Positions 3,501 through 46,200 of a stretch of DNA of 56,663 nucleotides are shown piece after piece. Position 1 is the first letter of the stretch, and every line of letters starts with the position of its first letter. The DNA lies in the IMG/VR virus record IMGVR_UViG_3300032284_000958, positions 1 through 56,663 of that record; one strand, given 5' to 3'. The notes beneath the pieces are model-generated. The model made no database searches and had not been told where the DNA came from. It saw nothing but the letters and a program-made list of their open reading frames with translations. The translations under genes were made by a program, and so were the position numbers. This DNA comes from a virus (Duplodnaviria > Caudoviricetes).

Positions 3501-5449
3501 ATACAGAAGATGAAGATGCAGTAGAAGCTGCCACAGAAGAATTTGAAGAACAGGAACGTGAAGAGTACGAAAATGAAGAAGCACGTTGGCGTGAGTTTTT
3601 AAGTGAGAAAGATATTGATTCAATGCACGATTGGATGCGTTGGGTGAATCGTAATAGTCCAAGAATTACTATCTATTGGCCATATATGATATATCGTGGT
3701 GGCGGTGATTTAACACGTGACGATATCGCAGATTTGTTTACACAACAAACTGGATTAGGTCCAACTAAAGTAGGTGATGGTTATCATAGTGTTAAACGTG
3801 ATGAAACACACTGGATTTTTGAACCAGATGGCAGTTTAGATGAACCAGATGATGATAATGATGGCAGTGTAGAAATTGTTTCTCCGCCAATGTCTCTTGA
3901 AAATGCGTTAAGTTCTCTTGAAACAGTATTCAAGTGGGCAAGTAAGAATGGTTATTATACTAACCAATCAACTGGTTTCCATATGGGTGTTAGTATTCCA
4001 GAACAGACTATGGAAAATATTGACCACCTAAAAGTAATCATGTTACTTGGCGATAATTATGTTCTTAAAAAGTTCAATCGTTATGGTGCATACTTTGCAC
4101 AAAGCACAATTGACCGTATCACTGAATTTTTAAAGAATAAAGACAGGGAAGGATTAGCTTCAGTATTTGATGAGTTCCGCAATGGTATACGTGAGTTTGC
4201 ATATAAAGAAATCAATAAATTATTGCTTCCTGGCGCAGACCATAGATTAACTGTCAATATTAAGAAAACGTATATTGAGTTCCGTGCAGCAGGTGATGAT
4301 TATCTACCACAATTTGAAGAAATTCGCAAAACAATGTTGCGATATGTTCGTGTATTAGCTGCTGCGGCTGACCCCGAAGATGGTCGCAGAGAGTATCAAA
4401 AGAAATTGTATAAAAATATCATGAGTTCTATTAAAAAATCTGATGATACGGTTGACACTACAATTAATATACTTTCAGATTTTGTTGCTAATCCTGACTC
4501 TAAGAAAGAGGATTTACAACCATTATTATTAAAATTAGTAAGAAAATCTAATATAGCTCGCACTGTGCCAAAAACCATTGGTAGTGGTGAAACCCAAGTT
4601 AAAGTCTTTAGAAGAAAAAATGATGACGTTTTAACCAGTGATGACCAGATTAGTACTATTAATGCAACAACAGTTAATGAACTTGTAAAATATGCAAGAG
4701 AGATGGCTGATAAGGCTAATATGAATTATGAAGATATAGTTCTTAAGCCAGTGGCAAAATATTTTATTCGTTATCGCATAGAAACAGGCGATGCCAGAGA
4801 AAATTATGGCATAATGGCTCTTGGTCAAAATAGAAATTATAATTTAGGAATCGCTGCCGATCTGATGAATGTTCCTAAAGAGTATGCAGAGAAGGTAATA
4901 AAGTTTTATATTGAACATCAATATGCGTTGAGTAATTTAGTTAGTGATTTAAGTTACATCAAACTGCCCACCAAAGAGGCAGTTGACCGTGCTATTTCGT
5001 TGGTTAACCCAGAACAAAAAAATGACAATCCAGACGATAATGGGCCAGGACGATATGCGATATTTGTTCAAGGCAGACAATTATCGGCGGATCGTCAATT
5101 GGATAGTAAAGAAGCCGCTGAAGATTTTTTTAGTGACGTAGCAAGAACTATTGGATTACAGAATTGGGAGGTTAAACGTGTTCAATCTCAACAACCCGCA
5201 CAACAGCGTCAGAGTGCTCAGCAAGAACGTCAGGATTTGACACTTGTTAGAACTATTGGTAATCCAAATCTAAGAACTCCCAATTACATATTCTATGTGG
5301 TAAATTCTAATAATGTAGTTGTGCTTAGAATACAGGCAGCTACGATAGAAGATGCGAACAGTTATCTACAGAGAGATTTGAATCAAACGGCAGATGGCAT
5401 ATCAGAATTAAATTTATCTGTAATACCATCAACACAGTGGCATAGTTAA
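557..5449 (+). CDS. 1630-aa protein with two tandem putative amidoligase (COOH-NH2 ligase type 2) domains plus small repeated modules; probable virion protein
   Basis: The motif set occurs twice: GLEFE/GFETE, EPDSSL/EPDGSL, EFVSPPL/EIVSPPM, STGLHMNIS/STGFHMGVS, VEFR/IEFR. Each copy is preceded by ILNE-(V/I)NMSP. Confidence 0.75.
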   Translation: MKQHEILSEEEILNEVNMSPSALRDAVKKIPGARAGLEFELIVTADGDDVDDDYDPYEDFDSEPDYDMDEYIRESSWGGLEGAVMDFFRGDHNSRRQITTELVSAREDYEGWLSNKFVEWGDGYDTDSQLTRLGAWIEKMYGGVDPKYQGELFGDEPLDAFASFKKEYFTNWIEMSEEESDFIEKWLEDQCGGTSMSDFGNTYDLNWPHWTEPDYDNRSSRDGGPPIGSFSSAVGMNVDYSGSYHGRSKSLRNYTVEPDSSLRANGRKGGEGWEFVSPPLPVDDMIEQLRKVAEWAKSGNAYTNDSTGLHMNISLPGYNLAKLDYVKLALFLGDKYVLETFGRLGNTYAESAFEKITSTIKNNPDRAGQALDLLRKSLNLEAGKAIHSGQTQKFVSINTKDNRVEFRSPGGNWLDMDLDTVVNTILRTVLALDIAMDPTKEVKEYQKKYYKLLSQAKGTDNDTIKYFVQYASGNLPKTALLSFVRDAQRKRDVAKGKDTKDSDNRTNLAGTTPPAEYNPKYSIYLPNTNMTARDIPNNEPVVQYVRAWAERRNGNLDTIRILSNETGMLYDLEGNRDRNLRSVDLGTVRRPVTAQIRYYVKSGTPENNYNMTSFVADGDSSARSYVTDNRPYGQWFLIRDDKPNESIMSVGPASDSNAAPQSSSASTIPDLTSSETTGGQLYQMLRPSGPNPVIAQGRFNDPSEAVQRFGAYADANNIARNEYHVHRPTQQPEQAASQGGQQFEIVSGGNVIHRFNAASQPEAYQIAVRYARDNGLVNGRWTWRTVGGERQQSANPEGPMYEIVAEGNIVHEFRAVSPRAAERYAQSWVDEHLGDFGYDVRLASRNESLGESILNEINMSPTSLQKFADSPFAQSMKVGFETELYVPDLENDNNRNYSDSEEDMDEDISFPARANYIDRRDRVTVFFIGGDNQPNDRSDIRAALDETDEAFMEWVSEEFYNYKDSSEYKSNLARHLADEGVDTEDEDAVEAATEEFEEQEREEYENEEARWREFLSEKDIDSMHDWMRWVNRNSPRITIYWPYMIYRGGGDLTRDDIADLFTQQTGLGPTKVGDGYHSVKRDETHWIFEPDGSLDEPDDDNDGSVEIVSPPMSLENALSSLETVFKWASKNGYYTNQSTGFHMGVSIPEQTMENIDHLKVIMLLGDNYVLKKFNRYGAYFAQSTIDRITEFLKNKDREGLASVFDEFRNGIREFAYKEINKLLLPGADHRLTVNIKKTYIEFRAAGDDYLPQFEEIRKTMLRYVRVLAAAADPEDGRREYQKKLYKNIMSSIKKSDDTVDTTINILSDFVANPDSKKEDLQPLLLKLVRKSNIARTVPKTIGSGETQVKVFRRKNDDVLTSDDQISTINATTVNELVKYAREMADKANMNYEDIVLKPVAKYFIRYRIETGDARENYGIMALGQNRNYNLGIAADLMNVPKEYAEKVIKFYIEHQYALSNLVSDLSYIKLPTKEAVDRAISLVNPEQKNDNPDDNGPGRYAIFVQGRQLSADRQLDSKEAAEDFFSDVARTIGLQNWEVKRVQSQQPAQQRQSAQQERQDLTLVRTIGNPNLRTPNYIFYVVNSNNVVVLRIQAATIEDANSYLQRDLNQTADGISELNLSVIPSTQWHS

Positions 5450-7111: not shown

Positions 7112-7463
7112 GATTGCTATAATTCCAGAAACATATGACTATAAAGATGGAGACATTGTTTATAGGATATATGTAAGCAATCTTTACAATGATGATAATC
7201 AGTTAGTAATTGAACGTGCAATGCCTGTGATAGAACAAAATCAGGCATTGCTAGAAAACTTTATACTTGATAATACAAAATTTCCAGAAAATAGACCTAA
7301 GATTTTTATATTTACTATAGATGTTTTAACTGAATTAGGCACAAAAGTTGTACAACTGCATGTTAACAATAAATTGGTAGCTACGGGACAAATAAAACTT
7401 CCGTATAAAGATGTTCATGACGATGTAATAGTTAAAATAGTTATGAAGAATCCAAATAAATAA
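7092..7463 (+). CDS. Hypothetical protein
   Basis: 123-aa ORF in an operon-like arrangement. Confidence 0.6.
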   Translation: MTETFVKIAIIPETYDYKDGDIVYRIYVSNLYNDDNQLVIERAMPVIEQNQALLENFILDNTKFPENRPKIFIFTIDVLTELGTKVVQLHVNNKLVATGQIKLPYKDVHDDVIVKIVMKNPNK

Positions 7464-17032: not shown

Positions 17033-17651
17033 TATAAATCTGTTTCAATATGGTGGTTGTGGTGCTGCATACCTATTCCACCAACTTTTATTGACTGATG
17101 ACTTTGATATGTGTTTCAAGTTTGGCAAATCTGCAGAGTACTCAAGAGATAAAAACTTTAGAAAAGATAGAATTAAATCATGGAAGGCGGAAGAAGTTCC
17201 ACCAGATAATCCTGCTACACTACTACTAGAAACAGATAAAAGAAGAATATTTTCAGTAGTAAACAGTCTAGATTTATGGCACAAATACCCAGGCAGAAAA
17301 ATAGTCTTGTATACTGATTTGCGAACACAGATACGAATGACACATTGGAAGAAGGCATTTTGGTTTTTTGAACGTCCAACGCATGACTGGCAAATAGAAG
17401 ATTCTTGTAGGGGATTTAGACAATTAGTCAAAGACAATCCAAATAATATATTTGGAAAATATATAGAAAATAATCTTTTTGATTATTATACTATAAAATT
17501 ACAAGATATATTAACAGTAGATGGGCTTGCAAAAGTATTTGAAGATTTAGGTACTAAAATTACCCAAAAAAATATAGATTTTATAAATTACTACCTTGAT
17601 GCACATCCACCAAAATTATTAGATAAGTGTGGTATTAAAAAAATACATTGA
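17019..17651 (+). CDS. Hypothetical AT-rich gene, weak sulfotransferase-like pattern
   Basis: ATG at 17019; N-terminal GGCGAAYLFHQLL and a late IKLQDIL segment. Confidence 0.5.
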   Translation: MEKNDINLFQYGGCGAAYLFHQLLLTDDFDMCFKFGKSAEYSRDKNFRKDRIKSWKAEEVPPDNPATLLLETDKRRIFSVVNSLDLWHKYPGRKIVLYTDLRTQIRMTHWKKAFWFFERPTHDWQIEDSCRGFRQLVKDNPNNIFGKYIENNLFDYYTIKLQDILTVDGLAKVFEDLGTKITQKNIDFINYYLDAHPPKLLDKCGIKKIH

Positions 17652-17676: not shown

Positions 17677-17723
17677 ATAAACTGTGGCACTGGAAATCCA
17701 CACAACATAAAAAGAGAAAAAGA

Positions 17724-17942
17724 ATGATTAAAAATAAAACAGTCAATCGTGTGTTCAATGATTTGGACGATTATCGCAACTTCTGCCGTGATTATGGCTA
17801 TGTTTTTAAGGAAGCAGACCTTTATCATCGAAATACTACCTACTCACTATTTGAGAAGTCTCGTCGTGGTGAATATGTAAAAAATAACTGGGACGCAGAT
17901 GCTGAACTAACTGCAGCACCTGTTCACACAACCGTTCAGTAA
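17724..17942 (+). CDS. Hypothetical protein
   Basis: 72-aa ORF after the promoter. Confidence 0.7.
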   Translation: MIKNKTVNRVFNDLDDYRNFCRDYGYVFKEADLYHRNTTYSLFEKSRRGEYVKNNWDADAELTAAPVHTTVQ

Positions 17943-17945
17943 CCA

Positions 17946-18227
17946 GTGAGTTTTCCAGTGCCACATGACCAAGAACTTGATGTTAAATTTTATAATACCA
18001 CACTAGAACCAGACCATATTCTTGAGTTTAGCAAGTTTACTAAGTTTTCACCAAACCGAACAAAGCTAATGTATAAATTGAAAGATATGTTTAATCAGCA
18101 AAATCTTAGAAACGGGTCTGATTATCTTTTTTTAAATTCTTATAATAATGGCGGTAAAGTTCAGGTATGGTTCAAAGATAAAGAATATGTAAGTTTATTT
18201 GCAGTAATGTATACAAAAGATGAGTGA
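17946..18227 (+). CDS. Hypothetical protein
   Basis: GTG start; operon spacing. Confidence 0.55.
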   Translation: MSFPVPHDQELDVKFYNTTLEPDHILEFSKFTKFSPNRTKLMYKLKDMFNQQNLRNGSDYLFLNSYNNGGKVQVWFKDKEYVSLFAVMYTKDE

Positions 18228-20207: not shown

Positions 20208-20236
20208 TTGACATTCCTCTAATAAGAGATTATATT
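20208..20236 (+). promoter_or_regulatory. Sigma70-like promoter, probably yielding a leaderless mRNA
   Basis: TTGACA-N17-TATATT, with the ATG 6 nt after the -10 box and no RBS. Confidence 0.6.
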
Positions 20237-20242
20237 AGTCAC

Positions 20243-21244
20243 ATGAAATATCTTCTTATAGATACCGCTAACCTATTTGCACGTGCACGTCATAGCACAC
20301 CAGGTGGAGCAGATACTTGGCAAAAAATTGGTTTAGCATTACATATTATGCTTAATTCAGTGATGAAAGTTCATCGTCTGTATAAACCAGATCACGTTAT
20401 TTTTGCACTTGAAAGTCGTAGCTGGCGCAAGGATCATACTGGTACATATAAAGCAAATCGTGCTGTTACAAAAGCTAAAATGACTGTTCGTGAACTTGAA
20501 GAAGATAAAGAGTTTTGGGAAGTGTATGAGCAGTTTACAAATTGGCTCAATGAACGCACTAATTGCACTGTTATTAAAGTTGCTGCCGCAGAAGCAGATG
20601 ACATTATTGCTCGTTGGACTGCACTTCATCCCAACGATGAACATATTATCTTGTCCAATGACACTGATTTTTATCAACTCCTTAGTGAAAATGTTACTAT
20701 CTACAATGGCATGACAAATAACTTTATCACTACTACTGGGTTTTTTGACGATAAGGGAAAACCCGTTGTTGATAAAAAGACAAATGAACACAAAACTGTT
20801 GGAGACCCTAAGTTTGTGCTATTTGAAAAATGTATGCGTGGTGATCCAACTGACCATATTATGAGTGCGTATCCAGGTGTTCGCACCAAGGGTAGCACTA
20901 AAAAAGTTGGATTAATTGAAGCCTATGCTGACCGTGAAAAACGTGGTTGGGCATGGAATAACATGATGCTTCAGCGTTGGGTTGACCACAATGGTGTCGA
21001 GCATCGTGTGCTTGACCGTTATGAAGAAAACCGTGTGTTAGTTGATCTTACTGCACAACCAAGTGAAATCCGTGATGCAATAGATGCTGCGCTTGTTGCA
21101 GTAACACCTAAATCCAATTCTCAAATTGGAACACATCTTATTAAGTTTTGTAGTAAGTATGAACTTAATAAGATGCTTGAAAATGTAAATCATCTTGCTG
21201 AAGTTCTTAGTCTTAGTCTACCAAAGGAGACAATCAATGAATAA
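20243..21244 (+). CDS. rnh: T4-type RNase H / 5'-3' flap exonuclease
   Basis: LLIDTAN, SWRK, YKANR, EADDII, SNDTDFYQL, GDPTDHI. Confidence 0.9.
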   Translation: MKYLLIDTANLFARARHSTPGGADTWQKIGLALHIMLNSVMKVHRLYKPDHVIFALESRSWRKDHTGTYKANRAVTKAKMTVRELEEDKEFWEVYEQFTNWLNERTNCTVIKVAAAEADDIIARWTALHPNDEHIILSNDTDFYQLLSENVTIYNGMTNNFITTTGFFDDKGKPVVDKKTNEHKTVGDPKFVLFEKCMRGDPTDHIMSAYPGVRTKGSTKKVGLIEAYADREKRGWAWNNMMLQRWVDHNGVEHRVLDRYEENRVLVDLTAQPSEIRDAIDAALVAVTPKSNSQIGTHLIKFCSKYELNKMLENVNHLAEVLSLSLPKETINE

Positions 21245-22477: not shown

Positions 22478-22832
22478 GTGGACGCTAGAGTTATATCAAT
22501 TATATGCCAGTAGTCGCAGTGACTTACGTAAAATTCACACCGATGTTAATATATTATTTTGGTATAATCTTAGCAAAACTCAAGGATTGAGGCTAACACC
22601 TCTAGGATTTGATTTGATGCGTGAGGCGGGTTATAAGTTTTATGAAAATCCTATAGATGTTAAAAAATATCCTATAAATGGTAGGGAATTAGTCCTAATG
22701 GACCGATACCATCCTCACCCATGGTTTCACCTTACTGGCAAGGGGAGTTTATTCCTAACCGATGGGGAGTTATCCACAATCCTTGCCATGTGTGAGAATA
22801 ATTTATTGCAAGCAATTCAATTTTTAGGTTGA
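22461..22832 (+). CDS. Hypothetical protein
   Basis: ATG at 22461 overlaps the previous gene. Confidence 0.65.
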   Translation: MKSKDEWTLELYQLYASSRSDLRKIHTDVNILFWYNLSKTQGLRLTPLGFDLMREAGYKFYENPIDVKKYPINGRELVLMDRYHPHPWFHLTGKGSLFLTDGELSTILAMCENNLLQAIQFLG

Positions 22833-22877
22833 CAAGCTATATAAGTGTGATATTATCACCTTATGTTGATGGAGACG
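22829..22877 (+). promoter_or_regulatory. Early promoter and TGATGGAGA leader/RBS
   Basis: TTGACA-N16-TATTAT with a TG extension; TTGATGGAGACG. Confidence 0.7.
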
Positions 22878-22881
22878 AGAA

Positions 22882-23004
22882 ATGCGTAGTGCTTATGCAA
22901 AATCCCTTGCTGACGCAAAATACCGTCAGCGTGTAGTAAAAGCCCGTAAGGGTAAAGGTTCATATTCCCGTAAAACTAGCAAGAAAGACCAATCAAATGG
23001 CTGA
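22882..23004 (+). CDS. ArfA-like alternative ribosome-rescue peptide (40 aa, absent from the ORF track)
   Basis: MRSAYAKSLADAKYRQRVVKARKGKGSYSRKTSKKDQSNG* contains the ArfA signature (F/Y)RQRV...KGKGSY.RK. It has its own promoter and RBS. Confidence 0.7.
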   Translation: MRSAYAKSLADAKYRQRVVKARKGKGSYSRKTSKKDQSNG

Positions 23005-23677
23005 TTTTCCCTTTGTAGACGTTATTGCTGCCTCATGTGCTGCCCTTCGTGTCAATGGTCGTTATATTAAACGCCATGAAGGCGGAGAGGGCGAACTCAG
23101 TAATAATGTTGTTCTAAAGTACATTCTTGACCCTGCCTCATTCTCTACTGGCAGTGCAGAGATTCCAGAAAAGTATATTGGTCAAACAGTTACTGATGCT
23201 GATCTTGCGGAAGCAAGTGCAATTGTTCAGTATCTTGACCATCAGATGCTTGAACTGATTGCAGGTAATCTTCAGGATTACTGGAAAAACCTTGTTCTTC
23301 TTACTGAACGTAAGACGATTTCTTCTACCGATTACCGTACTCTTGCGCTGGTTGCAAGTGTTCCTTCCTCATATAAAAATGCTATGGCACGTGAAACTGC
23401 TATTGACAAAATTAACACTTTGAGCCAGAATAGCAAGTGGATTGGTAAGATTGGTGACAATTTTCCGCAACAGAATGTGGAAATCATCAGCAGCGTGTTC
23501 AGTGCCACATACAATAAGTGGTTCTATACAGCACTTACCGCTGACAAGAATATCATCAAGTTTCCCCATGCCCAAGCTATGGGCACTGGTGATACCCTTG
23601 AACTGTCAGGGCGTGTATATAAGCACGATGAAAATAACACGACTCGCCTTCATTATGTTCGTGTAAAAAAAATCTAA
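22997..23677 (+). CDS. Hypothetical early protein with a possible C-terminal OB fold
   Basis: WIGKIGD...LELSGRVYKH...TRLHYVR beta-strand pattern. Confidence 0.7.
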   Translation: MADFPFVDVIAASCAALRVNGRYIKRHEGGEGELSNNVVLKYILDPASFSTGSAEIPEKYIGQTVTDADLAEASAIVQYLDHQMLELIAGNLQDYWKNLVLLTERKTISSTDYRTLALVASVPSSYKNAMARETAIDKINTLSQNSKWIGKIGDNFPQQNVEIISSVFSATYNKWFYTALTADKNIIKFPHAQAMGTGDTLELSGRVYKHDENNTTRLHYVRVKKI

Positions 23678-23694
23678 AAAAGATAAAAAAGTTC

Positions 23695-23746
23695 TTGACA
23701 CCATATAATGGTGTGGTATTATCTCAATATAGTCAACTGATGGAGA
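23695..23746 (+). promoter_or_regulatory. Early promoter and TGATGGAGA leader/RBS
   Basis: A-rich UP element, TTGACA-N16-TATTAT, CTGATGGAGA. Confidence 0.7.
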
Positions 23747-23752
23747 AAACAA

Positions 23753-24883
23753 ATGGCTAAGAATACCGATGCCGCACTCTCTGAAGTGCGTTCTGTCACC
23801 CTCGCTGCTGCTAAGCGTGAGATTATGGTTTGCGTTCGTCGCAAACGTCCTGTGTTCCTGTGGGGTGCTCCAGGTATCGGCAAGTCCGAACTGGTTGCAG
23901 GTCTCTGCGATAGCATGGGTGGCAAGTTGTATGACCTTCGTCTTGCACTTATGGACCCTTCCGATTTGAAGGGTGTTCTCTACTACAATCCTGTTGCAGG
24001 TTCTGCAATGTGGAACCAGCCGCCAGACCTTCCTACGAAAGAGGAAGCTGCCAAGTATCCGATTGTGTTCTTGTTCCTCGACGAAATGAACTCGGCTGCT
24101 CCTGCAACACAGGCTGCTGCTTACCAGTTGGTTCTTAACCGTCGTGTCGGTACATATGAACTGCCTGATAACGTTGTTATCGTTGCCGCAGGTAACCGTG
24201 ATACTGACCGTGGTGTTGTGTATCGTATGCCTTCCCCGCTTGCCAACCGTTTTGTTCACTTGAACTTGCGTGTTGACTTCGAGTCGTGGAACGAATGGGC
24301 ACTCAACAACAAGATCAATCCTGACGTTGTTGCCTATGTTACGTGCAATAAGAACGATCTGTTCAACTTCGATCCTCGTTCTTCTGGTACGGCATTCGCT
24401 ACGCCTCGTTCGTGGTCGTTCGTTTCGGAACTTCTGCAAGAAGACCTTAACGATGTCGAACTCAATGACCTTGTGTCAGGTACGGTTGGTGAGGGAATTG
24501 CTCTCAAGTTTGCTGCACACCGCAAGGTTGCATCGCAGATGCCTAACCCGTCTGACATTCTGGCAGGTAAGGTTAAGGAACTCCGCACTAAGGAAATTGG
24601 TGCAAAGTACTCCTTGACGGTTTCTATCTGCTACGAACTCAAGGACAGCTACGATAAGTTTGGCGGTGATCGTATGAAGGACGCTGACAATACCCAGTGG
24701 CATGGTGAACTGGACAACGTGTTCCGCTTCTTCTTGGATAACATGGATACTGAACTTCAGGTCATGATGCTCGCTACTATCCTGCGTAACTACAAGTTGC
24801 CTATGAAGGCTAGCAAGCTGACGAACTACAAGGAATATCACGCTAAGAATGGCGACTTCATTCTTAGTGCGGTGCGGGACTAA
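23753..24883 (+). CDS. MoxR-like AAA+ ATPase
   Basis: Walker A GAPGIGKS, Walker B LFLDE, AAGN, LANRF, TPRSW. Confidence 0.92.
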   Translation: MAKNTDAALSEVRSVTLAAAKREIMVCVRRKRPVFLWGAPGIGKSELVAGLCDSMGGKLYDLRLALMDPSDLKGVLYYNPVAGSAMWNQPPDLPTKEEAAKYPIVFLFLDEMNSAAPATQAAAYQLVLNRRVGTYELPDNVVIVAAGNRDTDRGVVYRMPSPLANRFVHLNLRVDFESWNEWALNNKINPDVVAYVTCNKNDLFNFDPRSSGTAFATPRSWSFVSELLQEDLNDVELNDLVSGTVGEGIALKFAAHRKVASQMPNPSDILAGKVKELRTKEIGAKYSLTVSICYELKDSYDKFGGDRMKDADNTQWHGELDNVFRFFLDNMDTELQVMMLATILRNYKLPMKASKLTNYKEYHAKNGDFILSAVRD

Positions 24884-24920
24884 TCTCGCCCTACCCGTCT
24901 CCATCCGTTAGGGGGCGAGA
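24884..24920 (+). ncRNA. Candidate 3'-UTR stem-loop/sRNA with an anti-RBS loop
   Basis: Stem TCTCGCCC (24884-91) / GGGCGAGA (24913-20). The loop contains CGTCTCCATC, the reverse complement of GATGGAGACG. Confidence 0.45.
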
Positions 24921-24926
24921 GCAACG

Positions 24927-24964
24927 CAGCAGGGTAGACCGTGAATCTACCCTGCTGTTTTTTA
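24927..24964 (+). terminator. Rho-independent terminator
   Basis: CAGCAGGGTAGA-ccgtgaa-TCTACCCTGCTG followed by TTTTTTT. Confidence 0.9.
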
Positions 24965-24977
24965 TAGGAATTATATA

Positions 24978-25709
24978 ATGGCATATTTTATAACTGGTGC
25001 AGGACATTTAAACGGGCTTGGTGGTGCGCTAGCACTGCATCTGCTTGAATGTGGCAAGAATGTTGTTATTAATGGTAGAAACATCGATGACAAATGGTAT
25101 GAATATAAAATGGCATATGCAGATAGATTGCATATTGTTGTAGGTGATATTACTGATCCCGAAATCCAAGAACTTTTTATCAACGAAGCATATACTCTTG
25201 GTGGTATGGATGCCCTAATCAATAATGCCAGTAGCATCGAAAGCGACCCTCGCAATCGTGACGATTGGCAAAATGATTATTTGATAAATGTTATTGTTCC
25301 GTATGAATTGAGTTGGAAGGCTAGGTTGCATTTATCTAAAACAAAAGGGTGTATTGTCAATATTGGGAGCAGAGCAGGATTACAAGTTACGAATGAGGGC
25401 GGAAATGTTCCATACAGTATAGCAAAAGCTGCATTACATCATCTTACAATAACATTAGCATCGCAATTTCATTTTGATCCAGTTAGAGTAAATGCTATTG
25501 CACCTGGTATGTTTGAAAGTGACCGATTAAAGATAAAATTTGCTGGCGATTACTCTGATAATGAACAACGTTTTTTTAAAAAATCTATCATAAAAGATAG
25601 AATAACACATGAAGAATTGGTAAAATCTGTCATGTTTTTGATAGAAAATAAGAATATTACAGGCCAAATCTTACCAATTTGTAATGGTGCGTCGATAAAT
25701 CGTGCATAA
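24978..25709 (+). CDS. Short-chain dehydrogenase/reductase (SDR)
   Basis: ITGA...GLG, LINNAS, IVNIGS, YSIAK (YxxxK), RVNAIAPG, ITGQ. Confidence 0.9.
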   Translation: MAYFITGAGHLNGLGGALALHLLECGKNVVINGRNIDDKWYEYKMAYADRLHIVVGDITDPEIQELFINEAYTLGGMDALINNASSIESDPRNRDDWQNDYLINVIVPYELSWKARLHLSKTKGCIVNIGSRAGLQVTNEGGNVPYSIAKAALHHLTITLASQFHFDPVRVNAIAPGMFESDRLKIKFAGDYSDNEQRFFKKSIIKDRITHEELVKSVMFLIENKNITGQILPICNGASINRA

Positions 25710-25716
25710 AAAATGC

Positions 25717-25762
25717 TTGACATAACCGATATATATGGTAATATTGGTTATATTGATGGAGA
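25717..25762 (+). promoter_or_regulatory. Early promoter and TGATGGAGA leader/RBS
   Basis: TTGACA-N16-TAATAT, TTGATGGAGA. Confidence 0.7.
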
Positions 25763-25768
25763 ACTAAT

Positions 25769-27031
25769 ATGGCTAAAAAATCGTCTAATCCAGCTATCAA
25801 GCTGAGCGAAACAATCGATCCTGTGGCAGATGCCAAGGCTCGTGAAAACATCCTTAAAGCACGTATTGCGCTTGTGCTCAAACAGCCGTTTTTCGGCAAT
25901 CTTGCTATGCGTCTTAAATTGGTAAATGCCGATAGCTGGCTTACCACGGCGGCTACAGATGGTCGTCACTTCTATTACAATTCCTCGTTCATCAATCTGC
26001 TTGACACTCAACAGAACCTGTTCTTGTTCTGCCATGAGTTGCTTCACTGTGCATATGACCATATGAGCCGTGGTATCGGCAAACAGAAAGATATTGCCAA
26101 TATTGCCATGGATTATGTAGTCAATGCCGATTGTCTCAAGTATGGTCTTGGTAAGAAAATCACGGTTGTTCCTATCCTGTATGACCGCAAGTATGAAGAT
26201 TGGAACTTTGAACAGGTGTATGAAGACCTGATCAAGAATGCAACCAAAATTAACATGGATGACCTTCTTGACCAACTTCTTGATGACCATCTTGATAACA
26301 ATAAAGATGAAAAAGATGGTAATGGCGATAAGAAAGATGGCAAGGGTAATGGTCGCCCATCGTTGTCGCCAGAAGAACGTCAGGCTATCCGTGATGAGTT
26401 CAAGGAAGCTATGCTTGCTGCTGCTCAAAGTGCAGGTGCTGGGAACGTCCCAGGAAACATCAAGCGTATGATCAACGAACTGACCAACCCTAAAATCAAT
26501 TGGCGTGAGTTGATTACTCAACAAATCCAGTCTACTGTTAAAAACGATTACACATGGACTGTGCCTAACAAGAAGCATTTTTCTAACGGATTTGTGCTTC
26601 CTAACATGCGTAAGGATCAGGCTATTGATGTTTGCTGTGCAATTGATACCAGTGGTTCTATCTCACAGGAACAAGTAACTGAGTTCGTAAGTGAGATTGC
26701 AGGTATCATGCAGACTTTTGATGATTACAAAGTCAAAGTATGGTGCTTTGATACCTCTGTCCACAATGCGGCAGACTATGACATTGGCAATGGTCACGAA
26801 ATTGCCGCATATGAAATGGGTGGTGGTGGCGGTACTGACTTTGACGCTAACTGGCAGTGGATGAAATACGAAGACATTACACCAAAAATGCTCATCGTAT
26901 TTACTGATGGTGAACCATACGGTTCATGGGGTGATGAAAACTATTGCGATACCGTATGGATCATCCACAACCGTTATCGCAAGGATATTGTCCCACCATT
27001 TGGTGTAAGTGCATACTACGACGAAGCATAA
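25769..27031 (+). CDS. DUF2201-type HExxH metallopeptidase-like plus vWA-domain protein (MoxR partner)
   Basis: TAATDG, HELLH, NIAMD, MIDAS motif DTSGS, GGGGTDF, FTDG. Confidence 0.88.
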   Translation: MAKKSSNPAIKLSETIDPVADAKARENILKARIALVLKQPFFGNLAMRLKLVNADSWLTTAATDGRHFYYNSSFINLLDTQQNLFLFCHELLHCAYDHMSRGIGKQKDIANIAMDYVVNADCLKYGLGKKITVVPILYDRKYEDWNFEQVYEDLIKNATKINMDDLLDQLLDDHLDNNKDEKDGNGDKKDGKGNGRPSLSPEERQAIRDEFKEAMLAAAQSAGAGNVPGNIKRMINELTNPKINWRELITQQIQSTVKNDYTWTVPNKKHFSNGFVLPNMRKDQAIDVCCAIDTSGSISQEQVTEFVSEIAGIMQTFDDYKVKVWCFDTSVHNAADYDIGNGHEIAAYEMGGGGGTDFDANWQWMKYEDITPKMLIVFTDGEPYGSWGDENYCDTVWIIHNRYRKDIVPPFGVSAYYDEA

Positions 27032-27037
27032 CAATCA

Positions 27038-27067
27038 TGGCGGGGGTAAAACCTCGCCAATTTTTTT
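27038..27067 (+). terminator. Rho-independent terminator
   Basis: TGGCGGGG...CCTCGCCA hairpin followed by a T-tract. Confidence 0.75.
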
Positions 27068-27114
27068 ATCATAATTTTATTATTATTAAATACATATATA
27101 ATGGAGAAAAACCA

Positions 27115-27354
27115 ATGAGTGAAGAAGTTAATAGTCAAATCACTGATTCAGTGACCCAAACACCAGCGCCAAATATTACTATTGCAGATATCGCATTTCT
27201 TGTACAGATTGTAGAAGTATGCAGTCAGCGTGGTGCATTTCGTGCAGAAGAACTAACCAATGTTGGTGCAGTTTATGATAGAGTAAAAGCATTTATCGTC
27301 GCTAATACTCCAGCACCACAAGCTAATGACGATACAACAGAGGAATCAGAATAA
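27115..27354 (+). CDS. Hypothetical protein
   Basis: TAAATA at 27087 and a GGAG RBS; CSQRGAFRAEEL. Confidence 0.75.
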   Translation: MSEEVNSQITDSVTQTPAPNITIADIAFLVQIVEVCSQRGAFRAEELTNVGAVYDRVKAFIVANTPAPQANDDTTEESE

Positions 27355-45801: not shown

Positions 45802-46200
45802 TTATCGTATTCCAACAGCCACTTCAATAAGTTGAACACTGTCATCTTCTATATCAAACATTGCTTTTCCAACTATGCAACCGTGAACAAACTTTTTTGG
45901 ATCAAGTTTCTGTCCTATACCTGGTTGATCGCTTGTAACAACACAATCACCTTTGGTAATTGGTCCTTTTACTTGGCAATTAACTCTACCAACAACAGCA
46001 AATGTTGAACATGGAAACCATCCAAAATTAGTAAGAGTTAATTCAGCATCGATATTTGGGTCAATTGCTATACCAGCAACTCGTGGATCGTGTGATGTTT
46101 TACTAATTTCAACATCACGACTTCCACCAAAAACTATAATATTGCCTGGAGATACATTGTCTCCATCAACTGTGTAGAAAGCAACAGATAAACTTGACAT
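45802..46200 (-). CDS. Stand-alone fiber chaperone-like (peptidase G2/IMC-like) domain
   Basis: Aligns with the last about 125 aa of 49436..53833 (VFGG..RVAG..GRV.C.V.GP..KG..VTS..GCI.GK..IE.AVG). AAGGA RBS before ATG 46200. Confidence 0.7.
   Translation of the reverse strand: MSSLSVAFYTVDGDNVSPGNIIVFGGSRDVEISKTSHDPRVAGIAIDPNIDAELTLTNFGWFPCSTFAVVGRVNCQVKGPITKGDCVVTSDQPGIGQKLDPKKFVHGCIVGKAMFDIEDDSVQLIEVAVGIR

Follow-up and report, generated by a model that had tools for sequence, protein, structure and literature searches.

The window, by which we mean the whole stretch of DNA that was analysed, is a viral record of 56,663 bp. CheckV gives it a completeness of 16%, and it is therefore taken to be a fragment of a jumbo phage. 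No near-identical DNA was found among GenBank phages. A comparison of the whole window with the Rfam 15 covariance models at the gathering score returned 0 matches, and a scan of the window for tRNA and tmRNA genes found none. The locus of interest is a gene for a MoxR-like AAA+ ATPase, which has an ArfA-like gene upstream and a vWA gene downstream. The MoxR-like protein is 46% identical to the ATPase of the PA5oct group. Its scores for AAA_3 (26.8 bits, cut-off 27) and bpMoxR (20.8 bits, cut-off 27) are both below the Pfam cut-offs, and its score for the generic AAA family PF00004 (25.7 bits, cut-off 21.2) is above. The ArfA-like protein matches ArfA PF03889 at 34.1 bits (cut-off 25.5), and the vWA gene product matches DUF2201_N and VWA-like DUF2201. 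The gene names given in an earlier sequence-only reading of this DNA are thus borne out by Pfam, with the MoxR families at or below their cut-offs save PF00004. The features that matter for what follows are these:

22829-22856, plus strand: predicted sigma70-like promoter of the ArfA-like operon
22868-22877, plus strand: ribosome-binding site (RBS) of the ArfA-like gene (coding sequence 22882-23004), a perfect 10-nt complement of the hairpin loop described below
23695-23722, plus strand: predicted sigma70-like promoter of moxR (TTGACA, 16 nt, TATTAT, with TG preceding), 11 of 12 consensus matches
23730-23755, plus strand: short leader and translation-initiation region of moxR, in which 23739-23746 (GATGGAGA) could pair with the loop
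23753-24883, plus strand: open reading frame of the moxR-like AAA+ ATPase gene, 376 aa, with weak Pfam AAA-type matches
24884-24920, plus strand: candidate anti-RBS hairpin with a 9-bp G+C-rich stem and a 19-nt loop, starting one base past the stop
24926-24964, plus strand: predicted intrinsic terminator of moxR, a 13-bp stem with a 7-nt loop (stem-loop 24926-24958) followed by a T-run
25755-25762, plus strand: RBS of the vWA/DUF2201 gene (coding sequence 25769-27031, promoter at 25717), an 8-nt complement of the loop

The moxR stop codon is a TAA at 24881-24883, and the entire 3'UTR behind it is about 80 nt long. An extra hairpin between this stop and the terminator had been noticed from the letters of the sequence, and it is indeed present. 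Its 5' arm (24884-24892) and 3' arm (24912-24920) enclose a loop (24893-24911) with an anti-Shine-Dalgarno (anti-SD) core at 24896-24905, which is the reverse complement of GATGGAGACG. The terminator begins five bases beyond the hairpin. Folding of the 101-nt region gives -40.1 kcal/mol with a z-score of -3.58, and the loop is left unpaired; none of 200 shuffled sequences is as stable. The hairpin at 24884-24920 was considered as an intrinsic terminator itself and rejected, since no T-run stands behind it and the true terminator is the next hairpin. An antisense gene starting in the loop was also rejected; the reading frames that open at the loop ATGs range from 4 to 174 aa, with shifts of frame among 13 relatives. 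The moxR leader is about 20-25 nt long. The promoter lies upstream of this leader and the terminator lies downstream of the hairpin, so both segments are predicted to be on one transcript, with the promoter and terminator being predictions from consensus scans rather than mapped RNA ends. A look for RNA runs covering 23600-25100 turned up DNA contig runs only.

The loop is complementary to several leaders in the window. Over 10 nt, 24896-24905 is a perfect reverse complement of 22868-22877, as the sequence-only reading had stated, and the window has no other exact match to this 10-mer. The positions that it gave for the 8-nt matches at the RBSs of moxR (23739) and vWA (25755), and for ATGGAGA before the ATG at 27115, are likewise all correct. 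The two strands of the window have 6 copies of the octamer GATGGAGA, where 0.96 would be expected; a count of 6 is reached in 0 of 100 shuffles. Three of the copies stand as an RBS directly after a strong sigma70-like promoter, at 22868 (ArfA-like), 23739 (moxR), and 25755 (vWA/DUF2201). One further copy is the complement of the loop, and two are inside coding sequence, at 7146, which had been pointed out before, and at 46160 on the minus strand, which is an addition. The predicted duplex of the loop with the ArfA-like leader has 10 nt and -23.9 kcal/mol, and the duplex with moxR's own leader has 8 nt and -17 kcal/mol. Past one mismatch, three further pairs with the loop are possible at 23735-23737 of the moxR leader.

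The hairpin is a conserved feature of close relatives. A MoxR search yielded 35 viral contigs, 32 of them with 84-90% MoxR identity, and three of these 32 end before the 3'UTR. In all 29 close relatives with sequence beyond the stop, a hairpin directly follows the stop and carries CTCCAT in its loop, a motif that 13 of 13 representatives have unaltered. The layout of a sigma70-like promoter followed by a leader of about 20-25 nt and the ATG is found in 32 of 32 close relatives. The terminator varies freely among them, both in its sequence and in how many hairpins it has. Because hairpin and CTCCAT are kept in every one of the 29 while the terminator changes freely, the comparison indicates that the hairpin element is under selection. 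Among 14 representatives, the loop window averages 0.83 and the leader 0.81 in pairwise identity, as against about 0.51 for third codon positions in the last 300 nt of the coding sequence, an approximate value since one representative is shifted by a codon.

The stem is less constant than the loop core. Folded as single sequences, 18 of 22 variants have the outer stem in the minimum free energy (MFE) structure; pairing with downstream sequence displaces it in three variants, and the structure of L032/L033 is different. RNAalifold applied to a 13-sequence alignment gave an alternative 8-bp helix, not the outer stem, and in that alignment MAFFT had placed the stems out of register. The stem of L022 has been wholly replaced by another G+C-rich stem, with the loop core kept.

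The one partner of the loop that is matched in every close relative is the leader of moxR itself. The perfect complement between own leader and loop extends over 10-13 nt in 29 of 29 close relatives (12 nt in 20, 10 nt in 8, and 13 nt in L022) and over 8 nt in the window. Shuffled tails reach the length of the own match in 0 of 5000 cases for L002, L018, L022, and L032, in 3 of 5000 for L020, and in 20 of 5000 for the window. In all lineages with a match, the paired segment of the moxR leader overlaps the SD or the start codon. The 3'UTR of moxR thus contains what defines an icaR-type element, a segment complementary to the SD/start region of its own mRNA. Folding of full-length transcripts points in the same direction to a varying degree. 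In the MFE structure of the window mRNA, leader bases are paired with transcript positions 1170-1181, which are the loop, with a probability of about 0.18. For the L002 mRNA (1224 nt), the predicted probability of leader-loop pairing is 0.54-1.0 per base and at least 0.8 at 11 of 12 bases. The full-length fold of L022 does not predict the pairing, which would need a pseudoknot there and so is beyond the model of the program.

If the loop addresses an RBS, the two should change together, and covariation of loop and RBS in related phages had been put forward as telling. The comparisons indicate that leader and tail co-vary lineage by lineage. Within the close relatives, L022 has changed both the 3' flank of the loop core and the 5' flank of the leader; its complement is 13 nt with its own partner vs 8-10 nt with the partners of other lineages. 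L032/L033 (58% identity) have an unrelated pair of 10-mers, one right behind the stop and the other over the RBS, which match over 10 nt with each other vs 3-5 nt in cross combinations. A wider set came from a profile-based scan that reported 542 moxR relatives, from which the best 80 were taken; 78 of the 80 have both ends. These 78, together with the window, L022, and L036, make 81 loci, which form 25 clusters at 80% protein identity. Lineage clusters based on shared 8-mers were dropped, as nearly all loci were lumped in one, and the protein-identity clusters were used instead. Matches were sought between the leader from -35 to +3 and the first 60 nt after the stop. The start codons of distant relatives were picked by a simple rule, so some of their leaders may be misplaced.

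Nine of the 25 clusters hold a member with an own match of at least 8 nt, and the matching sequence is different in each. The leader sites lie between -22 and +3, with the ATG included in one clade, and the tail sites between +3 and +43. Every lineage that has the match has an element that starts 1-33 nt past the stop, set in a small hairpin loop, in a large terminator loop, or in single-stranded sequence just ahead of the terminator. With the first member of each cluster taken, own matches of at least 8 nt are found in 7 of 25 vs 13 of 600 cross pairs (Fisher p = 3.7e-6), and own matches of at least 9 nt in 5 of 25 vs 4 of 600 (Fisher p = 7.7e-6). In about 13 of the 25 clusters, an own match is absent or undetectable above background. 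The element was not found in PA5oct, Phosso, and L036, whose longest own matches are 4-6 nt. In G001, a complete relative of 338 kb, only 3 of 388 called genes have an own match of at least 10 nt, namely moxR, the vWA gene next to it (in that subclade), and a gene of 73 aa. A six-member clade was also examined column by column. Its leader and tail are paired in 57 of 58 cells, and 2 pairs have changed on both sides, as compared to 23-50% paired when the partners are slid by 1-3 columns; 36 of 500 shuffles equal the observed score, a modest statistic from few sequences. The complementarity of leader and tail has therefore been maintained by compensatory change, as seen in the own and cross comparison, in L022, in L032, and in the count within this clade. 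Since relatives keep the match with different sequences, the tail of the moxR mRNA most likely folds back and limits its own translation.

The same procedure was applied to a second gene as a control. For vWA/DUF2201, with 79 loci plus the window in 17 clusters, own matches of at least 8 nt occur in 0 of 17 vs 6 of 272 cross pairs. Leaders and terminators that are short and A+T-rich consequently do not explain the moxR signal. This result bears on the simplest explanation, in which composition and chance account for the match, a GC-rich hairpin happening to hold a CUCC that is complementary to any GGAG-type RBS. The GGAG/CUCC core is indeed generic, the own match of the window stops at 8 nt, and the 8-mer has two more copies inside genes. 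The matches in relatives run well past GGAG to 10-13 nt, however; 29 of 29 relatives keep them, their two sides have switched jointly in independent lineages, and the vWA control lacks them. Chance alone is thus hardly credible as the source of the pattern. The caveat that the complementarity might be fortuitous had been raised with the original observation. It is disfavoured by the shuffles, the relatives, and the vWA control, and retains some force for the window taken alone, where 8 nt are matched and 20 of 5000 shuffled tails do as well.

A constraint on the DNA rather than the RNA would give the same pattern, because perfect inverted repeats of 8-13 bp flank the open reading frame and co-vary. 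Such repeats could bind a protein, or could be where an invertible or mobile cassette recombines. The placement of the two copies speaks for RNA. The SD or start codon always coincides with one copy; its counterpart is in the transcribed 3'UTR, often in a hairpin loop whose stem is kept or replaced. A cassette that inverts should be found in both orientations; relative to its promoter, moxR points the same way in 32 of 32 close relatives, these being assemblies in which a minor form could be hidden. No recombinase was noticed beside moxR, where the neighbourhood was viewed without a systematic search. We regard a DNA-level role of the repeats as very improbable.

A more serious question is which RBS the loop acts upon. 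The headline of the sequence-only reading was a 3'UTR-derived small RNA that tunes a class of early mRNAs. In this scheme, an RNase would free the hairpin and terminator as an RNA of about 80 nt, which would act in trans on early mRNAs with GATGGAGA-type leaders. A loop seed followed by a terminator with a U-tail is suited to a 3'UTR-derived sRNA, and the Vibrio cholerae sRNAs OppZ and CarZ are a reported precedent (PMC7398697). The class of leaders also exists beyond the window, where 6 copies of GATGGAGA stand against 0.96 expected. The complete 338-kb relative G001 has 12 GATGGAGA sites vs 1 for the control, and 7 of the 12 are RBSs just past sigma70-like promoters. Among its 388 genes, the five best duplexes between the loop and a translation-initiation region are all with promoter-proximal GATGGAGA leaders. 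The best of these (12 nt, -24.2 kcal/mol) belongs to a gene other than moxR, which ranks fifth. In the window itself, the loop fits the ArfA-like leader (10 nt) better than the leader of moxR (8 nt). The two also share a one-base difference, GAGAC vs the GAGAAC of relatives, which keeps 10 nt paired.

The distribution of these targets argues against a class-wide role. The hairpin is kept in L022, whose record of 86.5 kb has only 2 GATGGAGA sites and so lacks such a class, and the loop of L022 tracks its own altered leader. The pairs of distant lineages are unique to moxR; the lineage 10-mers occur solely at the moxR leader and, reversed, in the tail, both in L022 (86.5 kb) and in L088/L089 (26 kb and 76 kb). 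The ArfA-like leader is an inconstant partner. Its match across relatives is 6-11 nt when the internal MRS start is used and 4-11 nt with script-picked starts, and it is only 6-8 nt in several relatives with an unchanged loop. No ArfA-like gene was found in the 3 kb upstream of moxR in 9 of the 29 relatives that keep the hairpin. A scan for an internal promoter near the 3' end of moxR, from which an independent sRNA could arise, found none, and a trans-acting sRNA would therefore need processing. In the record of L123, the 8-mer ACACAGCC was considered as a common leader and rejected, as most of the 20 inspected sites are inside genes.

Taken together, these comparisons favour 3'-5' pairing and autoregulation of moxR over a class-wide sRNA, and we consider the latter unlikely, though it deserves to be kept in mind. 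From the original proposal, the hairpin, the anti-SD loop, and selection on the element are upheld, and long-range pairing for autoregulation, which it had offered as the alternative, becomes the favoured option; the class-wide sRNA fares less well. A spill-over of the moxR element onto other early genes, the ArfA-like gene especially, is possible because the leader motif is common to a few other early genes in the window and in close relatives. The ArfA-like RBS could be a second target of the loop, either on the same read-through RNA or in trans. No convincing terminator was found between the ArfA-like promoter (22829) and moxR. The ArfA-like leader may accordingly share a read-through RNA with the loop, and in that case even this contact would be in cis. 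The vWA/DUF2201 RBS is a possible target in trans only.

The moxR 3'UTR hairpin is thus probably an anti-RBS element of the icaR type that pairs with the RBS of its own mRNA. The loop would expose a pyrimidine-rich stretch that complements the SD region of its own transcript. After synthesis of the 3' end, the loop could pair with the leader, either within the molecule or by way of a 3' fragment of the same gene. The pairing, which the complementarity leads us to expect in vivo, would hide the RBS and block 30S binding, limiting further initiation, and it would probably speed mRNA decay. The yield of MoxR per transcript would then be capped, a form of negative autoregulation or a timer of translation. 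An action in cis is proposed by analogy with known cases.

By the same analogy, the sign of the effect is probably repressive rather than activating. A positive closed loop can be conceived, in which 5'-3' pairing either guards both ends against RNases or places ribosomes that have finished the gene next to the start site. A ribosome that comes to a stop 1-20 nt before the element would melt it and free the RBS again, and translation would be self-sustaining. A contact between the 5' and 3'UTRs of Bacillus subtilis hbs, reported to govern stability, is a parallel (PMC5737220). The start of the element 1-33 nt past the stop, inside a terminating ribosome's footprint or a little past it, would also suit an activating loop, although this proximity carries little weight because the 3'UTRs are short. 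The leader segment, on the other hand, always reaches into the SD or the start codon (-22 to +3), which is a signature of occlusion and not of end protection, and anti-SD-like sequences that were put to experiment are reported to repress (PMC12697547). An activating role is improbable on these grounds.

Repression through an anti-SD sequence in the 3'UTR has a clear counterpart in icaR of Staphylococcus aureus. A UCCCCUG motif in the icaR 3'UTR pairs with the SD region of its own mRNA, blocks initiation, and hastens decay; the study, as far as its accessible text goes, concerns 3'UTRs of more than 100 nt and demonstrates cleavage by RNase III (PMC3868564). Both icaR and moxR have a pyrimidine-rich anti-SD motif in the 3'UTR that complements the SD of the mRNA carrying it. 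The icaR 3'UTR is long, whereas that of moxR is about 80 nt and has the motif in a hairpin loop, with the hairpin one base past the stop, and a leader of about 20-25 nt. The icaR case is experimental and the support for moxR of the jumbo phage is comparative. The two are without sequence homology, so the likeness is one of mechanism class and not of a homologous family.

In B. subtilis, anti-SD-like sequences that lie several hundred nt further down the mRNA base-pair with the RBS, with the effect that translation is inhibited and decay promoted (PMC12697547). The portion of that work available to us describes tests of synthetic 8-mers and a depletion of anti-SD-like sequences from natural genes (Gill et al., bioRxiv 2025, PMC12697547). 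In contrast to those synthetic sequences, the moxR anti-SD is natural, conserved, and co-varying. Its occurrence where such sequences are normally depleted points to selection for it. If anti-SD-like sequences are normally purged, as that work reports (PMC12697547), the conservation of the one in moxR strongly signals deliberate down-tuning.

Control from the 3' end of a transcript is also known in other forms. OppZ and CarZ of V. cholerae are 3'UTR-derived sRNAs that autoregulate their own operon (PMC7398697). As is proposed for moxR, the 3' end of the mRNA, with its seed and terminator, acts on an RBS within its own transcription unit in negative feedback. Both sRNAs arise by processing and work in trans, and they need an RNase and a chaperone. 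The hok mRNA of plasmid R1 is subject to fold-back inhibition (fbi/tac), in which the 3' end pairs with the 5' end; hok belongs to a toxin-antitoxin system and is activated by 3' trimming. In the retroregulation of lambda int by sib, RNase III cleaves a hairpin of the read-through transcript, and there is no pairing with an SD. In hok and sib, as is proposed for moxR, a 3'-terminal element of a mobile-element mRNA controls the upstream open reading frame. In the literature on jumbo phages, UTRs, anti-SD sequences, phage 3'UTR-derived sRNAs, and MoxR, no report of such an element was found. The Moraphage paper deals with a different phage lineage with Bacteroidota hosts, and MoxR goes unmentioned in the accessible part of its text (PMC12619734).

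The moxR element is best placed as a new phage example of a known mechanism, 5'-3'UTR anti-SD pairing. End-to-end regulatory contacts in bacterial mRNAs comprise a handful of experimental cases, and we found none in a dsDNA phage. What sets moxR apart is the breadth of comparative support and the apparent selection for a sequence of a kind usually selected against. The element would be part of a simple, portable module in which a promoter and a leader of about 20-25 nt precede an open reading frame, with a 37-nt hairpin behind it. Its presence would mark the phage MoxR ATPase as a protein with tightly controlled dosage.

A bolder form of autoregulation is that, across a large group of freshwater jumbo phages, each moxR mRNA has a translation limiter built in, a closed 5'-3' loop that sets the protein yield per transcript. 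Ribosomes would load only during transcription, and the finished 3'UTR would close the mRNA on itself. Terminating ribosomes, with a footprint that reaches the element, would decide whether the loop stays closed. We think this version rather unlikely. If true, it would be the first prokaryotic mRNA device of this sort backed by family-wide co-variation. It would be a module reinvented with unrelated sequences in at least 9 lineages, and extended in some genomes to other early genes such as the ArfA-like and vWA genes.

A second gene in the window is flanked by complementary sequences at its two ends, and this pair is unrelated to the one found around moxR.
17685-17697 with 17953-17965: 5'-3' complementary pair around gene 17724-17942
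The enclosed gene encodes a product of 72 aa for which no Pfam match was found. Its upstream partner comprises the first 13 nt of the transcript predicted from a promoter at 17648, and this predicted 5' end is a perfect complement (13/13 nt) of the downstream partner, which lies about 10 nt past the stop of the first ORF and adjoins the start of the next. The homologue in a complete 338-kb relative has a long match as well, scored by script at 10 nt within a 43-nt leader window and extending to 13 nt when read further. Between the pairs of the window and the relative, two positions are altered on both sides, changes that were judged by eye to be compensatory.

The vWA/DUF2201 gene, the downstream neighbour of moxR, served as a control, and across the family it shows no enrichment of matches between its own leader and tail. 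In the window, the tail of this gene (27032-27075) holds a plain terminator only, with no anti-RBS element. In one subclade the gene does carry such an element.
L018/L035 4294-5556; also L019, L020 and L030: vWA/DUF2201 gene of the subclade
In these contigs, an element of 8-10 nt immediately past the vWA stop is complementary to the gene's own leader, which is unlike the moxR leader. A 7-nt version, placed in a hairpin loop, is associated with the vWA gene of another contig, L025.

For the moxR hairpin itself, RNAalifold applied to the aligned hairpins of 13 relatives (alignment A1) gave a different helix of 8 bp: here the 5' half of the anti-SD loop, not the outer arm, is the partner of the 3' arm. 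Two mutually exclusive folds, one of them masking the anti-SD, would result from this helix. The register of the alignment may have created the helix as an artefact. At the end of contig L009 (~4190-4245), the hairpin and the moxR 3' end recur exactly as their reverse complement, which looks like a fold-back assembly artefact. The 8-mer ACACAGCC occurs 32 times in the 236-kb record of contig L123, versus 8 times for the reversed control. Most of 20 inspected sites fall within genes, and among these 20 only the moxR leader/tail pair looks regulatory.

Two further genes lie close to moxR.
24978-25709: short-chain dehydrogenase gene (adh_short, E = 5e-25)
22882-23004: ArfA-like gene, 40 aa (PF03889, 34.1 bits; cut-off 25.5)
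The dehydrogenase gene separates the moxR terminator from the vWA promoter. Since the promoter directly follows the terminator in most relatives, this gene looks like a lineage-specific insertion. ArfA is alternative ribosome-rescue factor A; the ArfA-like gene has a strong promoter of its own, and among 29 relatives, 20 were found to have a homologue no more than 3 kb upstream of moxR.

Many sigma70-like promoters in the window and the 338-kb relative (G001) place an ATG just 5-9 nt past the -10 hexamer.
Window 20208-20243: promoter with closely spaced ATG
Window 44862, minus strand: promoter with closely spaced ATG
G001, many sites, e.g. 29017, 34650 and 217708: promoters with closely spaced ATG
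With this spacing, a considerable fraction of the phage transcripts may be leaderless.
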